DNA of 64,000 nucleotides from Eubacteriales bacterium. Lineage in GTDB: Bacteria; Bacillota; Clostridia; Oscillospirales; RGIG5299. A program made the translations under genes and the position numbers. Each line of letters opens with the position of its first letter. The first letter of the stretch is position 1. The stretch spans positions 3,041 through 67,040 of the forward strand of contig JAZQKU010000043.1 in NCBI GenBank assembly GCA_045542315.1, in the 5' to 3' direction. Positions 23,070-31,015 of the stretch are shown here, piece by piece. Under the pieces are notes generated by a model. It was given only the letters and a program-made list of their open reading frames with translations, made no database searches and was not told where the DNA came from.

Positions 23070-24131
23070 ATGAAAAAATTACTTACATTATTAACCGCGC
23101 TTATTTTGCTTTTCGGAATCACTGCCTGCACGGTAACGGAAAACAGTTCAAGTGAGCCTCCTGCATCGAGCGAGCCGCCCGCAAGCTCCGACGTTACCTC
23201 CTCCGAGCCGCCCGCAAGCTCTGTTGTTACGCCGAGCAATCTTCCCTTCGTTCCCGAAACGAATATGGGAGAATTCGGAAGAAGCGTTTGGGCTTTTGAT
23301 AATTGCACAAATGTTGTTTGGGAAAACGAAGAAGTGTATTTTATTTTTGAAAACACCGTTTTTTCACTTACAAAAAAGATATATAAAAGCGATAATGGGT
23401 TACTGTCCGATTTGCTTTTATTTGATGGATATCTTTATTTTGAAGAGGAAGTCGATGGGAACAGCTCCTTGGTAAAAATTAAAACAGACGGAAGCGATAA
23501 AACTGTTTTGTGCGAAAAAAGCGGATTTATTTATAATCTGTTTATTTATGAAGGATATTTGCATTATAAATATTCCGCAAGCAGCTATGACACTTGTCAT
23601 AAAATCAAATTAGACGGAAGCGAGCCTGAACAAAAAGCAAGCAACTTTTTCCCTTTGGGAAACGGTTGGATTTATAAGCCGGGAAAGATAGATGCCGATT
23701 TTCTCCATGGACCGGGACAGTTGATCTGTGGCGATGAAGTCTTTGAGGAAGACGATGTTTGTCCGAGGTGGCGATACGTTTTCTTCAAGGAAAACTTTTG
23801 CTATTATGACGGGGACTTGAATCAGTTTGTTTTTTACAACATAAGAAACACTGAAAACAAAACGGCCGTGGCAGTTTCGGATGTCTTGGTGCGCTCGCCG
23901 GGGTGGGAATTTTCATTTATCGGAAACTGGATTTTCTACATCAATAAAAACTTCGAGCTTTGCAAAATAGATATAGAAGGCAACGGCTACGAGGTGCTTA
24001 CAACGGAAAAGGTTACGCAATTCGAGGTCTGCGGAGAATGGATACTTTGCTTCACAACTCACGATTTTGTAACGAATAACGGCGTTAGCCTCGTTAAATA
24101 TGACGGCACCGAAAATAAATTTATCGGCTGA
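23070..24131 (+). CDS. lipoprotein with DUF5050-like beta-propeller
   Basis: Lipobox LLFGITAC, an SSEPPASS x3 linker, and repeated ...YLYF...LVKIKTDGSDKTVL / HKIKLDGSEPEQ blades. Confidence 0.65.
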   Translation: MKKLLTLLTALILLFGITACTVTENSSSEPPASSEPPASSDVTSSEPPASSVVTPSNLPFVPETNMGEFGRSVWAFDNCTNVVWENEEVYFIFENTVFSLTKKIYKSDNGLLSDLLLFDGYLYFEEEVDGNSSLVKIKTDGSDKTVLCEKSGFIYNLFIYEGYLHYKYSASSYDTCHKIKLDGSEPEQKASNFFPLGNGWIYKPGKIDADFLHGPGQLICGDEVFEEDDVCPRWRYVFFKENFCYYDGDLNQFVFYNIRNTENKTAVAVSDVLVRSPGWEFSFIGNWIFYINKNFELCKIDIEGNGYEVLTTEKVTQFEVCGEWILCFTTHDFVTNNGVSLVKYDGTENKFIG

Positions 24132-24171: not shown

Positions 24172-24260
24172 GCTTACCGCGGCGATTTTCACCTTCTTCC
24201 CTTCTTTTTCATATACTGAAAAAGACAGCGATGTCAGACCAAAAACAAAGGAGAAGGATA

Positions 24261-24611
24261 ATGGATTACAAAGCATTTTTCGAGAGCGACGATTACGCCT
24301 GCTCGAAAACGAAAAAGCAAGGCGCGGAAGCCGATGGCAACTTTTTTACCGCTGCTCCCGTCTTCAAGCCGATGACCGAGGCACAGCCGTCAAAAAATGA
24401 ATGCGGCCCCGTAAGATCGCCCGAAACAACGGCGCGGGTGACCCTTTCAATGGAGCTTGACAGAGAGGGTCTTCCTCTTGCGATAGCCTACGTTCCCATG
24501 CAGGCGTGGCGTGAAGTTTACGAGCCCGAAATTGCGATCACACGGGCAACTGTTTTTAAAGAGCTTGACAAGCCGTTTTGTTTAGAGGAGGCAAAAAACC
24601 GTGGACGATAG
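24261..24611 (+). CDS. cotJA: spore coat-associated protein CotJA
   Basis: LAIAYVPMQAWREVYEPEIAITRATVFKELDKPF matches the CotJA domain. ATG 24261 follows AAGGAGAAGG. Confidence 0.85.
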   Translation: MDYKAFFESDDYACSKTKKQGAEADGNFFTAAPVFKPMTEAQPSKNECGPVRSPETTARVTLSMELDREGLPLAIAYVPMQAWREVYEPEIAITRATVFKELDKPFCLEEAKNRGR

Positions 24612-24843
24612 AACCTTACTTACCCGAAAAATTATGGCTTACAGTATGGCGGCAGAGGATTCCCGCCTTTTTCTCGACACTCACCCCAACTGCGATGCGG
24701 CGCTCGATTACTACAATATGAGCCTTAAGAAAAAGATGGAATATTTAAAGGAATACGAGAGCACCTTCGGTGCGATGTCGCAATCGAGCGTTCAAAACGG
24801 CAGATATTCGTGGATAAGCACCCCCTGGCCGTGGCAGATATGA
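24601..24843 (+). CDS. cotJB: spore coat protein CotJB
   Basis: IMAYSMAAEDSRLFLDTHPNCDAALDYYN is the CotJB signature. GTG start follows GAGGAGG and overlaps cotJA by 11 nt. Confidence 0.85.
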   Translation: MDDRTLLTRKIMAYSMAAEDSRLFLDTHPNCDAALDYYNMSLKKKMEYLKEYESTFGAMSQSSVQNGRYSWISTPWPWQI

Positions 24844-24863: not shown

Positions 24864-25061
24864 ATGTTTTTATATGAAAAAAGGCTCCAGTATCCCGTGA
24901 GAATAAAAAATCCGAATCCCAACACCGCAAAGCTCGTTATTTCGGCATTCGGAGGCCCCGACGGCGAGCTCGGCGCCTCGATGAGATATCTTTCACAGCG
25001 CTTTACCGCGTCGCAGGGCGAGGTGATCGGCACCCTTACCGACGTTGGTATTGAAGAATAA
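24864..25061 (+). pseudogene. cotJC: cotJC (Mn-catalase family spore coat protein), 5' fragment, interrupted after codon 62
   Basis: MFLYEKRLQYPVRIKNPNP...GELGASMRYLSQRF...TDVG, then IEE-stop read from the element sequence. Confidence 0.85.
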
Positions 25062-25072
25062 AATTGTTTATG
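25047..25072 (+). other. attL-like junction (GGTA core plus inner 16-bp arm)
   Basis: GGTA at 25047-25050 is shared with 30593-30596. The arm AATAAAATTGTTTATG at 25057-25072 matches 12/16 with the reverse complement of 30575-30590. Confidence 0.6.
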
Positions 25073-25079
25073 ATATAAT
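25051..25079 (+). promoter_or_regulatory. element-borne promoter reading into the small ORF and recombinase
   Basis: TTGAAG (the first 6 nt of the element), 17 bp spacer, TGA-TATAAT extended -10 (25071-25079). Confidence 0.4.
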
Positions 25080-25101
25080 AGTAACACAAGGAGGGGTTAC
25101 T

Positions 25102-25431
25102 ATGAGTTATTACAATTATAGACACAACATAAAAACTAGATTAAAACACTTCTGTCGCAACAACTTGACGAAAGAACAAGCACAAAGTTTGCTATTGTTC
25201 TTTATGGATAACAAAGAGTTATTTTCCCGTTTATGCCAAGCATACAATGAATATAAAGTAAGTTGTGGCAGGGAGTATTTATGTGTGATAACCAATTTAG
25301 ATGCTTTGTTTAAAAACACCGAAGCAGAAGAAGCGTTCATAAAGGAAATTAAAACTTACATAATGGACGTAATTGGTATCAAAAGAGAGGATGTTGAAAA
25401 TGGCACAGATACAGATAATAGAGCCGAATAA
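25102..25431 (+). CDS. small hypothetical protein upstream of the recombinase (candidate directionality factor)
   Basis: 109 aa, AAGGAGGGG RBS, overlaps the recombinase start by 32 nt. No family recognised. Confidence 0.55.
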   Translation: MSYYNYRHNIKTRLKHFCRNNLTKEQAQSLLLFFMDNKELFSRLCQAYNEYKVSCGREYLCVITNLDALFKNTEAEEAFIKEIKTYIMDVIGIKREDVENGTDTDNRAE

Positions 25432-27145
25432 AACAACCCTCAAAACTGACGACAACAAACCGCATAGGGTCTGCGCGTACTGCCGTGTATCGACAGACGA
25501 TACCGACCAAAAGAACTCTCTTGTGGCACAAAAGCAATTTTTCGCAAGGTATTTTAATCTTCATTCAAATTGGACTAATGTTGGCATATTTGCAGATGAA
25601 GGCCTTTCGGGAACCTCTCTTGAAAAAAGAGATGATTTCAACCGAATGTTATTTGAAGCCAGACACGGAAACATTGACATTATTCTTACAAAGGAAGTTT
25701 CCCGTTTTTCCCGTAATGTTCAGCATCTCTTGAATATCGTTGAAGAATTACGGAACAAGGGTGTTTATATTTGGTTTTTGTCTGACGACATAAACACCGA
25801 GAAACATGACTATCGAGAGAAATTGACACAGATAGCAACCAATGCCGAACAAGAGAGTTTAAGAACTTCTCGCCGTGTTCGTTGGGGGCAGCAACAACAA
25901 ATGCAACTCGGTGTCATTTTCGGTCGTAAAGAAATGTACGGGTATAATATCGTCAAGGATGACAACGGCATACAACATTTTGAAATCATACCCGAAGAAG
26001 CCGAAGTCATTAAAAAGATTTTTGAGTGGTTCGCAAGTGGCGAGGGTACTCACCGAATTAGCAGACGATTAGAGCAACAAGGTATCACTACCAAGCAATA
26101 TAAAAACGGGTGGAGTAATACTGTAATTCTTCGCATATTGCGGAACGAAAAATATGTGGGCGACTTGGCACAGGGCAAAACCTACACCCCCGACCCACTC
26201 ACCCACAAAAAGAAATACAACACGGGGCAATCATACCGATTTTATATAACCGACCACCACCCCGAAAGTGCTATTATTGACCGAGATTTATGGAACAAGG
26301 TGCGAACGATTTTAGAAGAAAAAGCACCGAGCGAAGAAATTAAGGCAAAGCACTCAAACCGCTATTGGACAAGCGGCAAGGTGTATTGTGGTTTATGTGG
26401 TGGCAGATATGTCAGTTATGTGAAGAAACAAAAGAACACCCCTTATCGTGCTTGGGTGTGCTTTGAAAATCACCAAAGGGGCAATTACAAGCAAATAACA
26501 CTTGATACGGGCGATACTGCACTTGTGGGTTGTAATGCTCTGCGAGTAAATGACAGAGTGCTAAAAACGGCAGTTCACGATATTATTACTGCATATATCA
26601 TCCCTTATAGAGAAACTTTGCTCAACGAAATGAAAAAGGAAATTGCCGAACTGTCAAAACCCAAAGACAATACCAAGCAGATAGAAAAACTACAAACGGC
26701 ACTTGAAAAGAAGCAAGGCGAAATCTCAAAGCTCACTTTGGGTTGGTCGGGTGGCTCGGTGCCTGATATTGCCTATTATTCAAGCATAGGGACACTTAAC
26801 AAGCAATATGAAGATTTACAAACACAACTCCGTAAAATGCAAGAACAAGGCAATTCTGCGAGTGCAGAGATACAAATATATACCGAGTATATAGAACAGC
26901 TTGAGTCTGTGCTCTCTCTTTCCGAGAACGACTTAAACGAGGCATTTTACGAAAGGGTTACAAAGCAGATTTTTGTTTATCCCCTTAATCTGTTGGAGTT
27001 TCGTTTGTCATTTATCCCAATGCCGATTTATATGCAATATAAGACATCAGGCAGAGGCGACGATTACACGGCAGAGTTCACTATCCTATCAAAAGAACAG
27101 TTTGCAGAACTGCTTGAAACTGCACCTAAAAACGAAATTGACTAA
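25400..27145 (+). CDS. large serine recombinase (SpoIVCA/SprA/TndX-like)
   Basis: YCRVSTDD catalytic Ser motif, resolvase core (LTKEVSRFSRN), recombinase domain, zinc ribbon (CGLCGGRY...WVCFENH) and a C-terminal coiled coil. Confidence 0.9.
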   Translation: MAQIQIIEPNKTTLKTDDNKPHRVCAYCRVSTDDTDQKNSLVAQKQFFARYFNLHSNWTNVGIFADEGLSGTSLEKRDDFNRMLFEARHGNIDIILTKEVSRFSRNVQHLLNIVEELRNKGVYIWFLSDDINTEKHDYREKLTQIATNAEQESLRTSRRVRWGQQQQMQLGVIFGRKEMYGYNIVKDDNGIQHFEIIPEEAEVIKKIFEWFASGEGTHRISRRLEQQGITTKQYKNGWSNTVILRILRNEKYVGDLAQGKTYTPDPLTHKKKYNTGQSYRFYITDHHPESAIIDRDLWNKVRTILEEKAPSEEIKAKHSNRYWTSGKVYCGLCGGRYVSYVKKQKNTPYRAWVCFENHQRGNYKQITLDTGDTALVGCNALRVNDRVLKTAVHDIITAYIIPYRETLLNEMKKEIAELSKPKDNTKQIEKLQTALEKKQGEISKLTLGWSGGSVPDIAYYSSIGTLNKQYEDLQTQLRKMQEQGNSASAEIQIYTEYIEQLESVLSLSENDLNEAFYERVTKQIFVYPLNLLEFRLSFIPMPIYMQYKTSGRGDDYTAEFTILSKEQFAELLETAPKNEID

Positions 27146-27151
27146 CTGAAA

Positions 27152-27180
27152 TTGTTTTTTGAATCGGATTATGATATAAT
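27152..27180 (+). promoter_or_regulatory. extended -10 promoter of the phosphorylase gene
   Basis: TTGTTT, 17 bp spacer, TGA-TATAAT. It shares the 13-mer TTATGATATAATA with 25068-25080. Confidence 0.4.
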
Positions 27181-27225
27181 ACAACTAACTGATAAATAAG
27201 AATTTGTGCCTTGGAGGAAATTTGT

Positions 27226-27984
27226 ATGTGGTTTTATAGGGATGATATAACAAGACCTACAATTTCTGCTGAAGAACAAGTTGAGTCTTCGCATGGAAAA
27301 AAGGATGCTTTTGTGCTTCCAAAAACAGTAGTACTGTTATATATGAGCGGCATTGAGTTTATAAAAGAACGATATGATGTTGAACTAATAACGGAACGTT
27401 TCCCAAGATTTCTTAATGCTTGCCCTATTTATAAGATTAAAGGACACAATGATATTTGCTTCTTAGATGGTGGAAGAGGTGCTCCACAAGCGGCAGATAC
27501 ATTGGAAACTTTGAAAGCATTAGGCATTGAGAATGTTGTTTCAGTAGGGATGATTGGTGGTTATTCAAGTTTAATTAATGTAGGAGATATTATCATTCCA
27601 CCACTTGCATATTCCGAAGAAGGTACGTCTCTACATTATTTTGAAAATGAAGAATATTATAAGCCTAATGAAAAACTATTTAAAGCGGCAGTTGGGTTTG
27701 TTGAAAATTGCAAACAACATTCAATTGTATCAACAGATGCGGTATATCGACAAACATTTTATAAAGAAGCACTATGGAGAAAAAAAGGTGCAGTAGGTGT
27801 TGATATGGAAACATCTGCATTATTTAGTGTTGGAAATTATTTGGATTTAAACGTAGTTGCTTTGTTAATGGTATCTGATATTCATCCTTTAGATGAGAAC
27901 GAAAATAAATGGTCGTGGAAAATGACCAAAGAAATGAGAAAAGAAGTTATTTATAAGGCGATTGATTTTGCTTTATCTATTTAG
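27226..27984 (+). CDS. PNP/UDP family 1 nucleoside phosphorylase-like protein
   Basis: GGRGAPQAADTLETLKALGIENVVSVGMIGG, INVGDIII, EGTSLHY and GVDMETSALF parallel the uridine/purine nucleoside phosphorylase motifs. Very AT-rich codon usage. Confidence 0.8.
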   Translation: MWFYRDDITRPTISAEEQVESSHGKKDAFVLPKTVVLLYMSGIEFIKERYDVELITERFPRFLNACPIYKIKGHNDICFLDGGRGAPQAADTLETLKALGIENVVSVGMIGGYSSLINVGDIIIPPLAYSEEGTSLHYFENEEYYKPNEKLFKAAVGFVENCKQHSIVSTDAVYRQTFYKEALWRKKGAVGVDMETSALFSVGNYLDLNVVALLMVSDIHPLDENENKWSWKMTKEMRKEVIYKAIDFALSI

Positions 27985-28018
27985 GATAGATAAATTCCAA
28001 TTTGTCGCTCTCTTATAA

Positions 28019-28091
28019 TAAACAAAACACCTTATGACTGTGGTCATAGGGTGTTTTGTTTATGATGGCGGGACCCTTTTGGGTCCCGGCT
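28019..28091 (+). terminator. two tandem hairpin terminators
   Basis: AACAAAACACCTTATGAC / GTCATAGGGTGTTTTGTT, then CGGGACCC-TTTT-GGGTCCCG followed by TAATTTTA. Confidence 0.65.
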
Positions 28092-28410
28092 AATTTTATA
28101 CCTTTTCTTGATTTTTATTTAAAACATTGTCATGCTATATTTGTATTCAATAATACAATGAAGGAGCAATATTAGAGAAAAAATGAAGGAGGAATATTTT
28201 ATATCTTTGAAAATCACACACAAGAAAACACACACATTAAACCCCAATCATGTGTTGTGTGCCAATGCTTGACTGTAAACGACCTCAAAGGCACACTTCC
28301 CATGATGTTCAATCGTAAAATCGTTGTATCGGGCGATTTTGGTTGAACACCCCAACCGACACGATAAGGTCGGTTTATCGGCGGTAGTTCCTATCGCTGT
28401 TTTGGGATAG

Positions 28411-28700
28411 CGGAGCGACGGCACCGTTATCTTTTATCTGAACAGTTAAACGATACATATATTATTTTTTAGGGTGTCGGTCAATGGGTCGGCACCTTAA
28501 AAATTACATAAATTATGTCGCCATTAACGGCGCGACGTTTACGATCGCGACGACAATGGCGACAAATACCACGAAAGGAGCGACAAAACAATGTCAAAAT
28601 CGTTATTCTATCAATTTAACTCTGCTTTGGACATGTGCTTTGTTTTGCATTTTGACAAGCATAGCGACAAGCACAACCCACAAGCAGATAGCGACCACAT
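28411..28700. repeat. cluster of about 8 GCGAC-core motifs around the tyrosine recombinase start
   Basis: GAGCGACGG, GTCGCC (rc), GGCGCGACG, ATCGCGACGAC, TGGCGACAA, AGCGACAA, TAGCGACAA and TAGCGACCA all fall within 290 bp. Confidence 0.45.
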
Positions 28701-29478
28701 AATAAAATCGTTGTCGGCAAAGAGCAACCTCAAAGACTTTGCTCACGACTTCGTCGCATTTATTAAAAACGAATATGGGGTCAAGCAAGTAAAGGAAATT
28801 ACCCCCGATATGTGCCAATCGTATATAGAGCGAAAAGTAGATGAGGGTTGTTCTTTGAAAACGATTAAGACCTACCAAAGCAATCTGCTCAAACTGTCAA
28901 AGTGTGCAAACAAAGCCTTCAACATTCGCACCGACTATGCGGTGTCGGTTGACGAAAGCAAGATTGAGAAAACCGAGACGATAAAGCAATACTCTTTCAC
29001 CCGTGAGGAAATGCAAAAGATACTCGCAGCCCCTCGTCAATGCGAAAGTCTGTCGGCACTACGGCTGGCATACGATTTGGGGCTTCGTGTCGGGTCTCTG
29101 TCCCGTTTAGAGGTTCGACACATAAACTTTCAAGATAATACCTTACTTGTCTACAAGGACAAAGGGAATAGGTCCAGAGTGCTACAAATGAACGACGAGA
29201 CCGCAAAGTTTCTCCGTCAGCAAATAAAGGGCAAAGACCCCCAAAGCAAGGTTTTCTCGGTGAAACCGTCAAGCATCAACACATATTTGCGGAGACGATG
29301 CACCGCCCTCAATCTCCGCGCCCCGAATGGCGAAATAAAGTCGGGGGTGCACTCAATCCGCAAGTTATGGGCAGAGGAGTTTGCCGAAAAAAACGGGGTC
29401 GCAAAAACGATGGTCGCACTCGGTCACGGGGAGCAAAGGAGCGATTTGGAGCAGACCTACCTGCATAGCAAAAAATAA
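28591..29478 (+). CDS. tyrosine-type site-specific recombinase/integrase
   Basis: C-terminal catalytic pattern: LGLRVGSL (R), HSIRKLWA (HxxR), LGHGEQRSDLEQTYL (H...Y). Confidence 0.8.
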   Translation: MSKSLFYQFNSALDMCFVLHFDKHSDKHNPQADSDHIIKSLSAKSNLKDFAHDFVAFIKNEYGVKQVKEITPDMCQSYIERKVDEGCSLKTIKTYQSNLLKLSKCANKAFNIRTDYAVSVDESKIEKTETIKQYSFTREEMQKILAAPRQCESLSALRLAYDLGLRVGSLSRLEVRHINFQDNTLLVYKDKGNRSRVLQMNDETAKFLRQQIKGKDPQSKVFSVKPSSINTYLRRRCTALNLRAPNGEIKSGVHSIRKLWAEEFAEKNGVAKTMVALGHGEQRSDLEQTYLHSKK

Positions 29479-29529
29479 TTTTAAAATTTTTTGAAAAAGG
29501 GGTCAAAAATACTTGCAATTTAATTTTTT

Positions 29530-29775
29530 ATAAGTTATATAGTTATATATACTTAACTTTTAGGTATTATAGGTATATAACTTTTTTAGGTTATATAGAT
29601 ATTAACTTACATAAGTTAGTAGGTAAAACACTTACTTATAAGGTTTATAGTTAAATCGCTTACATAAAGGTACATAGGCAGATTACTTTGAAAAGGTTTT
29701 AGTTATAACCCTTATTAAAGGTGTTTGTGTAGATATATAACTTAAATGGGTTGAGAAGTTAGATACTTTACAACG
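29530..29775 (+). repeat. AT-rich iteron-like direct repeat array
   Basis: Eight AGGT-initiated units (29562, 29571, 29588, 29621, 29641, 29668, 29694, 29719). Most carry AGTTA/TAACTTA-like second boxes. A palindrome AACTTA-CA-TAAGTT sits at 29604-29617. Confidence 0.6.
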
Positions 29776-29842
29776 GATAATGAATATACTCCTTTTGATT
29801 AGAAAAGTTTAAGTAAATAAACAAAAAGGAGTGTAAGTTTCA

Positions 29843-30193
29843 ATGCTTTCACAAAAACTAAACAATCTTTATGAAAATTATTTTTTAGGTGGTTACATTT
29901 CAAACTTGATTGATAACCCCAACAAACCCTATCTTTCTATCGCCATGAAGTCATATGACAAGGACAAGAGCAAAACTGTCTTTATTATGATTTTCAAAAT
30001 GTCGGGGTATGGCGATAGCAAATACCCGAACCCGACGGCACAAATCGTCAAAGATGCCTTTGAGAAACATATCCCCATTTCCTGTGTCTATTACGATGAC
30101 GGCAAAGGCGGAAACAAAATGTCCTGCTGCTATGCGAACTTCTCGGCAGATAAATATGCCGAAGTTCCCGTTGCCGACGAAATGCCGTTTTAA
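29843..30193 (+). CDS. hypothetical protein, possibly a divergent SSB-like OB-fold protein
   Basis: 116 aa. The C-terminus ...VADEMPF resembles the acidic D-D-D-I/L-P-F SSB tip, and the N-terminal LGGYISNLIDNPNKPYLSIAM pattern resembles an OB fold. This is a weak assignment. Confidence 0.35.
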   Translation: MLSQKLNNLYENYFLGGYISNLIDNPNKPYLSIAMKSYDKDKSKTVFIMIFKMSGYGDSKYPNPTAQIVKDAFEKHIPISCVYYDDGKGGNKMSCCYANFSADKYAEVPVADEMPF

Positions 30194-30206
30194 CGGGGGT
30201 ATGGAT

Positions 30207-30521
30207 ATGAATAAAAACAGATTTGACTTTGCCATATTAAACTGCCGTGAAATCGGCACTCATTTTGAAGGCAATCGCTATTGTTTTACTAGGCTTCCCG
30301 AATTAGAAATAGTTTCGTTTGCCAACTTCAAGTACGAAGACTACAAGCAAATAAACCAAGCATTAGAGGACGATACCTATACACATATATTTTATTCCAT
30401 TGATGACGATAGGTTGCATACAGATAAGTATGACGAATACCGAGACAGAACATATCCCGTATATTATATTGATAGAGACCACTTTGATAAATATTGGAAA
30501 CCCCAAATATTAGAAGGCTAA
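30207..30521 (+). CDS. hypothetical protein
   Basis: 104 aa. ATG 30207 follows GGGGG. No family recognised. Confidence 0.5.
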   Translation: MNKNRFDFAILNCREIGTHFEGNRYCFTRLPELEIVSFANFKYEDYKQINQALEDDTYTHIFYSIDDDRLHTDKYDEYRDRTYPVYYIDRDHFDKYWKPQILEG

Positions 30522-30530
30522 CCAAAGAAA

Positions 30531-30565
30531 GACTGTGCATTGTTGCACAGCCTTTTATTATTTTA
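30531..30565 (+). terminator. rho-independent terminator just inside the right end of the element
   Basis: CTGTGCA-TTGT-TGCACAG stem followed by CCTTTTATTATTTT. Confidence 0.6.
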
Positions 30566-30574
30566 CTATATGCA

Positions 30575-30596
30575 CAATAAAAATCTTATTTAGGTA
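30575..30596 (+). other. attR-like junction (inner 16-bp arm plus GGTA core)
   Basis: CAATAAAAATCTTATT (30575-30590), then TA, then GGTA (30593-30596). cotJC codons resume at ACC 30596-30598. Confidence 0.6.
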
Positions 30597-31015
30597 CCGA
30601 GGAGCTCGGACATATTGAGATGGTAAGCAGCATCGTTTATCAGCTCACCCGCGGGCTTACTCCCGAGGAGATCAAGAAAAGCGGCTTTGACGCCTATTTT
30701 ATAGAGCATACCACGGGAATTTACCCGGTGGCGGCTTCGGGCGAGCCGTTTAACGCAGTGGGATTCCAATCAACCGGTGACATTATCGCCGACCTCCACG
30801 AGGATATGGCGGCGGAGCAGAAGGCGCGAAAGAGCTACGATAACCTTATTACCCTTATCGACGATCCCGACGTGCTTGACCCCCTCAAATATCTTCGCGA
30901 GCGCGAGATAGTGCATTTCCAGCGCTTCGGCGAGGCGCTTCGGGTGGTCGAGGAGGGCTTGAACCCCAAAAATTTTTATTACACAAATCCCTCGTTCCCT
31001 ACCAAGAGAATGTGA
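30597..31015 (+). pseudogene. cotJC: cotJC 3' fragment (about 140 aa)
   Basis: The frame reads (G)TEELGHIEMVSSIVYQLTRGLTPEE...DLHEDMAAEQKARKSYDNL...LREREIVHFQRFGEAL, which are Mn-catalase/CotJC motifs. It is in frame with the 5' fragment when 25049 is joined to 30596. Confidence 0.85.

Follow-up and report, generated by a model that had tools for sequence, protein, structure and literature searches.

A 5.5-kb element (positions 25049-30594) interrupts the cotJC gene in the window, that is, the whole stretch of 64,000 nucleotides that was analyzed. We consider it highly probable that this element entered cotJC by recombination between an attP and an attB site, mediated by the large serine recombinase (LSR) encoded near one of its ends, with the crossover at a GG dinucleotide and with the dyad of attP centred between the two G residues (G|G).

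The interrupted cotJC gene and the content of the element

The features of the region are the following.

24231-24611, + strand: cotJA, upstream of cotJC (Pfam CotJA, 4e-14)
24601-24843, + strand: cotJB, directly upstream of cotJC (Pfam CotJB, 3e-23)
24864-25061, + strand: cotJC 5' fragment, with the host codons up to G62 followed by I-E-E-stop supplied by the element
25023-25047, + strand: attB left half (B arm), on the host side of attL, coding for ...I-G-T-L-T-D-V-G62
25047-25048, + strand: predicted crossover GG in attL, bases 1-2 of the cotJC Gly62 codon
25048-25072, + strand: attP P' arm, proximal to the LSR gene, inside attL (G TAT TGAAGA ATAAA ATTGT TTATG)
25051-25079, + strand: promoter-like sequence TTGAAG-17-TGaTATAAT, embedded in the LSR-proximal attP arm
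25102-25431, + strand: ORF of 109 aa that overlaps the start of the LSR gene, candidate directionality factor by its position
25400-27145, + strand: LSR, 581 aa, starting 353 bp inside the left junction
27211-30521, + strand: variable cargo (a PNP_UDP_1 phosphorylase-like ORF, a tyrosine-recombinase-like ORF and two unknown ORFs)
27211-27984, + strand: PNP_UDP_1 phosphorylase-like ORF, by domain match
28591-29478, + strand: tyrosine-recombinase-like ORF (Phage_integrase, E = 5e-16)
30533-30560, + strand: terminator-like hairpin followed by the T-rich tail CCTTTTATTA, close to the right end and within the element
30569-30593, + strand: attP P arm, distal to the LSR gene, inside attR (TATGC ACAAT AAAAA TCTT ATT TAG)
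30593-30594, + strand: predicted crossover GG in attR, common to all 33 related pairs
30593-31015, + strand: cotJC 3' fragment, from Pfam and the alignment to an intact homologue
30594-30618, + strand: attB right half (B' arm), on the host side of attR, coding for G62-T-E-E-L-G-H-I-E

Removal of the element in silico restores an intact cotJC ORF: when positions 24864-25050 and 30597-31015 are joined, a CotJC protein of 201 aa is obtained (Pfam Mn_catalase, residues 1-182, E = 4e-51). The repaired gene is colinear with the uninterrupted cotJC of a relative (P0121/L081, 97% protein identity) and aligns with it without gaps over 609 nt, which indicates that the insertion was conservative and that the first-pass annotation had placed the junctions rightly; there is no target duplication, and the precise empty site can be reconstructed in silico. 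Both halves of cotJC keep an open frame and retain all the invariant residues of the protein. The bases quoted for the junctions in that annotation are all present in the sequence: attL reads GACGTT-GGTA-TTGAAG, with GGTA at 25047-25050, attR reads ATTTA-GGTA-CCGAGG, with GGTA at 30593-30596, and the contiguous identity between them is exactly 4 bp. To the right of GGTA the likeness of the two junctions carries on (GGTAttGAaGAa versus GGTAccGAgGAg).

In B. subtilis, expression of the cotJ operon takes place in the mother cell. Just upstream of the operon in the window there is a gene encoding a DUF5050 protein (23070-24131) with a signal/lipobox-like N-terminus and short tandem SSEPPASS repeats, which has no relation to the cotJC element. 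The G+C content of the flanks is ~47-54%, whereas most of the insert shows 25-43%, with a local rise to ~50% near 29000-29500. The lowest value of the region (~25%) corresponds to an ORF-poor stretch within the element, at 29500-29800, which may serve for the initiation of transfer or replication.

The LSR shows the domains Resolvase (PF00239, 9e-28), Recombinase (PF07508, 4e-22) and Zn_ribbon_recom (PF13408, 3e-5), and a coiled-coil-like stretch at residues 408-502 that matches YkyA. Its match in PHROGs is the integrase family phrog_95 (2e-105), and in an alignment of 30 homologues (alignment A1) the residues of the catalytic R-x-S motif, R29, V30 and S31, are invariant, as is T32. The 109-aa ORF is found directly upstream of the LSR gene in 18 other loci of both orientation classes, and diverges faster than the LSR (31-87% versus 61-97% identity). 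Searches of this ORF against Pfam, NCBIfam and PHROGs gave nothing usable, its homologues are all close ones, and its AlphaFold model was unusable (pLDDT 53.5). Given its position and conservation, it is the sole positional candidate for a directionality factor.

The promoter-like sequence at 25051-25079 matches the consensus at 10 of 12 positions, is the joint-best in the scan and one of two with a TG extension. Among the clade 1 relatives described below, it recurs in 25 of the 37 LSR-proximal arms and in none of the 23 distal ones, and it is probably the promoter of the 109-aa ORF and the LSR gene. Because this sequence overlaps an LSR half-site, autoregulation is possible: the promoter in the LSR-proximal arm would drive both genes, and LSR bound to the arm could occlude it.

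Position of the crossover and architecture of the attachment sites

A search of species-representative genomes with an LSR profile (alignment A1) yielded 80 loci whose LSRs are 37-97% identical to that of the window, and at least 580 stretches encode an LSR relative. Both junctions are available on concordant strands in 33 loci; L069, with discordant strands, was left out. In all 33 pairs attL and attR share GG, and in 11 of them they share nothing beyond it; the base preceding GG differs between the two junctions in 20 pairs and the base following it in 17. This following base is always T on the element side, and T (16 loci), C (9), A (7) or G (1) on the host side. L002, L005 and L007, whose LSRs are 97, 84 and 97% identical to that of the window, carry attP arms equal to those of the window from -24 to +24, and show GGT-ATT in attL versus GGA-AC in attR.

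Serine recombinases generate 2-nt overhangs that must match between the partner sites. Given this requirement, and since GG is the one dinucleotide that serves all the pairs, the crossover is assigned to 25047-25048 / 30593-30594, a predicted position that the comparison across relatives makes solid. The GGTA previously regarded as the functional core does not survive this comparison, given the pairs in which GG alone, or no base after it, is shared. In the window TA is shared because this host writes Gly-Thr as GGT-ACC, which would be a chance effect of host codon choice; the Gly62 codon of P0121/L081 is GGC, so that TA is not kept even in the nearest empty site. The very short shared core had also been taken as the mark of LSR att junctions and not of a long-homology tyrosine-integrase site, and in this respect the earlier assessment stands.

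A crossover at TA, in the middle of the palindromic attB hexamer GGTACC, or at GT, could be proposed from the fact that GGTACC is a perfect palindrome in the repaired gene of the window and that at least GGT is common to 16 of the 33 pairs. However, the near-identical elements L002, L005 and L007 reside in GGA-AC hosts, and others in GGC-AC hosts, where T and TA are not shared; moreover, TA is palindromic and would leave the orientation unfixed, yet the presence of GG or CC tracks the orientation in 37 of 37 clade 1 LSR-proximal arms. We find such a crossover hardly credible; the sites are described here as centred on GG.

The complementarity of the reconstructed attP sites was scanned over 24 positions, with the axis placed from -8 to +8. 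The attP site is a quasi-palindrome of ~50 bp centred on the crossover dinucleotide: G|G is the best axis in 32 of the 33 sites (16.3 +/- 2.5 of 24, versus 7.4 +/- 2.3 for the other axes), the exception being L060, which shows no symmetric attP at any axis. In the window attP the G|G axis scores 14/24 (p = 0.018, with the axis fixed from the comparative data), and the symmetric blocks are ACAAT (30574-30578) / ATTGT (25063-25067) at +/-16-20, TCTT (30584-30587) / AAGA (25054-25057) at +/-7-10, and TA / TA at +/-2-3. Each 25-bp half-site includes an inner motif, TAT-TGAAGA (+2 to +10), and an outer motif, AAATTGT (+14 to +20). The P' arm is conserved in 37 clade 1 LSR-proximal arms and is symmetric to 30569-30593 about G|G, and the P arm is identical in L002, L003, L005 and L007. 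In the structure of LI integrase bound to attP the half-site is also 25 bp long, with the outer motif at bp 16-24 (PMC3783163), and the half-site of the window agrees with it. Upon excision, the predicted attP product is ...CACAATAAAAATCTTATTTAGGTATTGAAGAATAAAATTGTTTATG...

The first-pass annotation had proposed a different anatomy, in which 16-bp arms lie 6 bp to each side of a dyad centred at the A|T that follows the GGTA core. This axis obtains 13/24 overall in the window, nearly a tie with the 14/24 of G|G, which explains the wrong choice of axis when the window is considered alone. The 12 matches out of 16 between the reverse complement of 30575-30590 and 25057-25072 were correctly counted, as was the 6-bp spacing from A|T, and for a fixed axis and offset their p value is 0.0014. 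The match is nevertheless not above chance: with both parameters free (axis +/-8, offset 0-10), 10% of composition-matched shuffles reach 12/16 (p about 0.10). Across the 33 relatives the corresponding axis, +3, averages 9.1/24, which is the background value, and the 16-bp arms pair -19 to -4 with +10 to +25, a 6-nt register error in A/T-rich sequence. In addition, a centre at A|T implies a crossover at AT in attP versus AC in attB, which is chemically inconsistent for a serine recombinase, and the base after GG is the one that 17 of the 33 pairs do not share. We judge that anatomy very improbable and retain the dyad at G|G.

It could also be thought that the insertion was made by the product of the tyrosine-recombinase-like ORF, given its Phage_integrase domain. 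This ORF is present only in the three closest relatives, whereas the LSR and both arms are kept in all the relatives, it lies 3.5 kb from one end of the element and 1.1 kb from the other, and the 2-4 bp of identity and the dinucleotide at the centre of the dyad are both features of the serine type; its participation as the integrase is scarcely conceivable, and we assign this role to the LSR.

The block of CotJC that contains attB, L58-T-D-[IV]-G62-T-E-E-L-[GA]-H-x-E-M, is the most conserved of the protein. Among 120 CotJC proteins the L-T-D-[IV]-G block is near-invariant, residues D60, T63, E64, E65, L66, H68 and E70 never vary, and all the homologues but one (119 of 120) have G62. At the nucleotide level the two G residues of the Gly62 codon are invariant (59/59 and 50/50), and its third base is free. 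The weak symmetry formerly noted for attB agrees with our scan, in which it averages 6.3/24 at G|G; the two TCGG sequences cited as its basis are direct copies, not inverted ones. The commonest best axis of attB (-4) reflects an incidental palindrome, ACCGAT|ATCGGT, that codes for T-D-I-G. The inner bases of the B' arm, nACnGARGA, resemble the clade 1 attP half-site. In LSR systems the outer (ZD) motif of attB lies 5 bp nearer to the centre than that of attP. The outer motif of attP, ATTG(T/C), is located at +16 to +20; comparison of the consensus half-sites by eye reveals in attB at best a weak a-C-T-g-G at +11 to +15 of the right half, and the attB half-sites were searched for this motif at the position 5 bp further in, where no clear copy was found. 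The predicted attB product of excision is ...CTTACCGACGTTGGTACCGAGGAGCTCGG...

Related elements, their cargo and their orientation

A tblastn search with the repaired CotJC located a cotJC fragment at the boundary of the element in 73 of the 80 loci. The break is at codon 62 (Gly62) in all but four of these 73 loci, with LSRs that range from 97% to 37% identity. The four exceptions, which belong to clade 2 (L040, L049, L051 and L054), leave cotJC 6-11 bp downstream of GG, and hence other crossover positions exist within the same cotJC motif; on the attL side of these loci the contexts ...GGCACAggtgattcg... and ...GGCACCGAGGAtactattt... are found.

The first 2.1 kb of the element, which include the arm, the 109-aa ORF and the LSR gene, are 90-94% identical in nucleotide sequence to L002, L003 and L007, whereas the host flanks of these three loci have almost no nucleotide similarity to the window. 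A near-identical element start between dissimilar host flanks shows that a conserved unit has moved between different hosts; by sequence conservation, this unit is formed by the two arms, the 109-aa ORF and the LSR gene, and its movement was horizontal and recent. The cargo of the window element is missing from, or different in, most relatives. In L082 (2309-2998) and L083 (2885-5604), where the LSRs are 75-88% identical, the cargo differs from that of the window, and among the relatives it includes a Mob_Pre relaxase, an EcoO109I-type restriction-modification pair, or an acetyltransferase. The tyrosine-recombinase-like ORF, located as it is in an element integrated by a serine recombinase, is common only to the window, L002, L003 and L007. 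As judged from these loci, the LSR family behaves like a group of small integrative mobilisable elements with swappable cargo.

Several loci present more complex arrangements. In L031 (4453-15413) and L028 (2143-16213) cotJC is in three pieces, being cut again downstream of codon 62, near aa 134-136 in L031 and aa 165-178 in L028; these second inserts hold serine-recombinase genes whose products are 25-38% identical to the window LSR. The cotJC C-fragments of L064 and L075 also end at aa 136. In L048 (76-2862) two tandem cotJC C-terminal fragments are found, each preceded by an arm that resembles the left arm of attP, which could reflect elements in tandem or nested within one another, or duplication of the target. 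Several IMG/VR contigs (L093-L104) end in a clade 2 LSR followed by a cotJC N-terminal fragment, and thus the predicted viral boundaries include host cotJC.

Two clades of LSRs can be distinguished. In clade 1 (50-100% identity) the 5' end of the LSR gene is at the junction and the half-site is (G/C)TATtGAaGA...AAATTGt.cAT, whereas in clade 2 (~40% identity), whose members are often found at prophage ends, it is the 3' end that is at the junction and the half-site is (G/C)TgTATCgGT...AaATTGC.CAT. The outer motif AAATTGY.CAT is common to both clades and the inner motifs differ. The clade 1 inner motif is closer to the right half of attB (TAYnGARGA; 6.1-6.5 of 11 positions identical, versus 4.1-4.4 for the left half), and that of clade 2 to the left half (ACCGAYATY; 5.8-6.4 of 11, versus 3.5-4.0 for the right half), which suggests that the two clades may rely mainly on opposite halves of a common attB.

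The elements are inserted in both orientations. In 11 loci, among them the window, the LSR gene is co-directional with cotJC and the proximal arm reads GG-TATTGAAGAATAAAATTGTTTATGATATAAT when followed from the crossover towards that gene; the shared sequence of this arm, GG-TATTGAAGA... in these 11 loci, is CC-TATTGAAGA... in the 26 loci with an antisense LSR gene where it could be seen. The distal arms follow the same pattern, and in the 37 clade 1 LSR-proximal arms the alternation between GG and CC tracks the orientation without exception. Elements of the same architecture are thus inserted both ways in one attB, and they differ systematically in nothing but the polarity of the central dinucleotide, which, GG being non-palindromic, fixes the orientation of the insertion. 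According to the work of Ghosh et al. (2003), as it is cited in PMC10083194, the central dinucleotide alone sets the polarity of the Bxb1 reaction, and GG and CC variants with the same arms are what the rule, in the form given there, predicts.

In a neighbor-joining tree of the LSRs, which carries no support values, the co-directional group of the window is nested inside antisense relatives, and the co-directional lineages L030 and L032 branch separately; this topology is consistent with three or more orientation switches in clade 1. In the clade of ~40% identity, about 28 loci show GG versus CC in L053, L058, L059, L064 and L074. Within each clade, elements appear to have flipped orientation repeatedly by inverting the central dinucleotide while the arms were kept. 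Taken jointly, we lean modestly towards the view that the GG of cotJC codon 62 is a landing site widely used in Clostridia by two clades of LSRs, with repeated orientation flips by inversion of the dinucleotide.

Excision of the element and comparison with known systems

If skin, SPbeta and gin are taken as a guide (PMC4191935, PMC5595907, PMC5025042), excision of the element probably takes place in the mother cell during sporulation. It would be precise and restore cotJC, and the LSR would carry it out with the 109-aa ORF as its directionality factor. Read-through from the cotJ promoter was considered as a general trigger of excision and discarded: both orientations occur and most relatives are antisense to cotJC.

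The products of such a reaction were searched for in sequence collections. Four collection scans of viral and metagenome contigs for the attP junction of the excised circle, with exact or degenerate patterns, gave no hits, and no free intact attP was found in 80 IMG/VR loci encoding LSR relatives. Among the short Logan contigs of element size (L082-L086), which were inspected for circular forms, L082 proved to be an insertion that retains ~28 bp of cotJC on either side. A protein search of plasmid and phage collections revealed neither a close annotated relative of the LSR nor a plasmid-borne copy; the best full-length matches there are ~29-33% identical, and one partial match (70% coverage) reaches 41.6%. 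The contig index contained no record for the window LSR itself.

An alternative is that the anatomy is as described but the copy is fixed and never excises: cotJC would be just inactivated, or the element would move solely as an integrative mobilisable element, unrelated to sporulation. The scans of contig collections, which yielded neither attP nor attB products of this organism, would fit with it, as would the Mob_Pre relaxases of the relatives, the occurrence of both orientations, and the observation that C. difficile tolerates the loss of cotJC-type catalases (PMC11222575). On the other hand, the LSR, the 109-aa ORF and both arms of the window element are intact and match those of mobile relatives, and the two halves of cotJC preserve their open frame and every invariant residue. 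A fixed copy is, in our opinion, unlikely, although it deserves some weight.

The mis-centred model of the site is replaced here by an assay-ready one, with attP and attB centred on the GG at 25047-25048 / 30593-30594. With cotJC, another gene is added to the sporulation genes known to be split by recombinase-bearing elements (sigK, spsM, spoVFB, spoVR, gerE and yabG), in this case a target where the insertions, in many families of Clostridia, fall at a single invariant glycine codon. The existence of GG and CC variants whose arms are identical would be a natural confirmation that the central dinucleotide alone sets the orientation of serine integrases. More than 30 cognate attP/attB pairs, with graded divergence of their LSRs, could help to study or engineer site recognition and, if the interpretation is true, they represent a natural series of att variants and a ready set of orthogonal attP/attB pairs. 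The observations at the family level confirm established rules and do not overturn current understanding.

From its sequence, the cotJC element would be a sporulation-gene intervening element with an LSR gene at its edge, of the type of skin, SPbeta, vfbin, vrin, gin and yin. Elements of the skin and SPbeta type are prophages or prophage remnants of 48-134 kb; in contrast, the cotJC element is only 5.5 kb long and carries metabolic and recombinase cargo. In skin (SpoIVCA, sigK) and SPbeta (SprA/SprB, spsM), as in the case reported here, an LSR-bearing element interrupts a mother-cell gene; in these systems the gene is precisely reconstituted and a separate small factor controls directionality (PMC4191935, PMC5499854, PMC5025042). 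Their developmental control has been demonstrated, whereas for the cotJC element it is proposed by analogy.

The closest known system in size and content is gin, which interrupts gerE in Bacillus cereus ATCC 10987 and uses the integrase GirC and the directionality factor GirX (PMC5595907). Both are small non-prophage elements that split a mother-cell sporulation gene and carry an LSR gene at the edge and a small accessory ORF; in both, an imperfect inverted repeat flanks the short shared core in the attP equivalent, and attB is devoid of symmetry (PMC5595907). They differ in the target, cotJC instead of gerE, and in the length of the shared core, 2-4 bp versus the 9 bp of gin (PMC5595907); in addition, the 109-aa ORF has no detectable relation to any known family, and excision of the cotJC element is a prediction from its sequence. 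An interruption of cotJC has been mentioned once, in Laceyella sacchari (10.1101/2022.02.25.481979); the target gene is the same and the recombinase is SpoIVCA-like, but the host belongs to the Bacilli and no att anatomy was given. In the literature, as far as it was covered, which was incompletely, no description was found of the Clostridia codon-62 family, its att anatomy or its orientation variants.

Regarding the characterized integrases, the attP half-sites of A118/LI, Bxb1 and phiC31 are 25 bp long and contain an inner (RD) and an outer (ZD) motif (PMC3783163), and the cotJC element resembles them in this and in that a non-palindromic central dinucleotide alone sets polarity (PMC3783163; Ghosh et al. 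2003, as cited in PMC10083194). The relation of the window LSR to these proteins is distant in sequence, and its matches in the PDB cover only the catalytic region. While in the characterized integrases the dinucleotide rule was established with engineered mutants, in the cotJC elements it is seen as natural variation between GG and CC.
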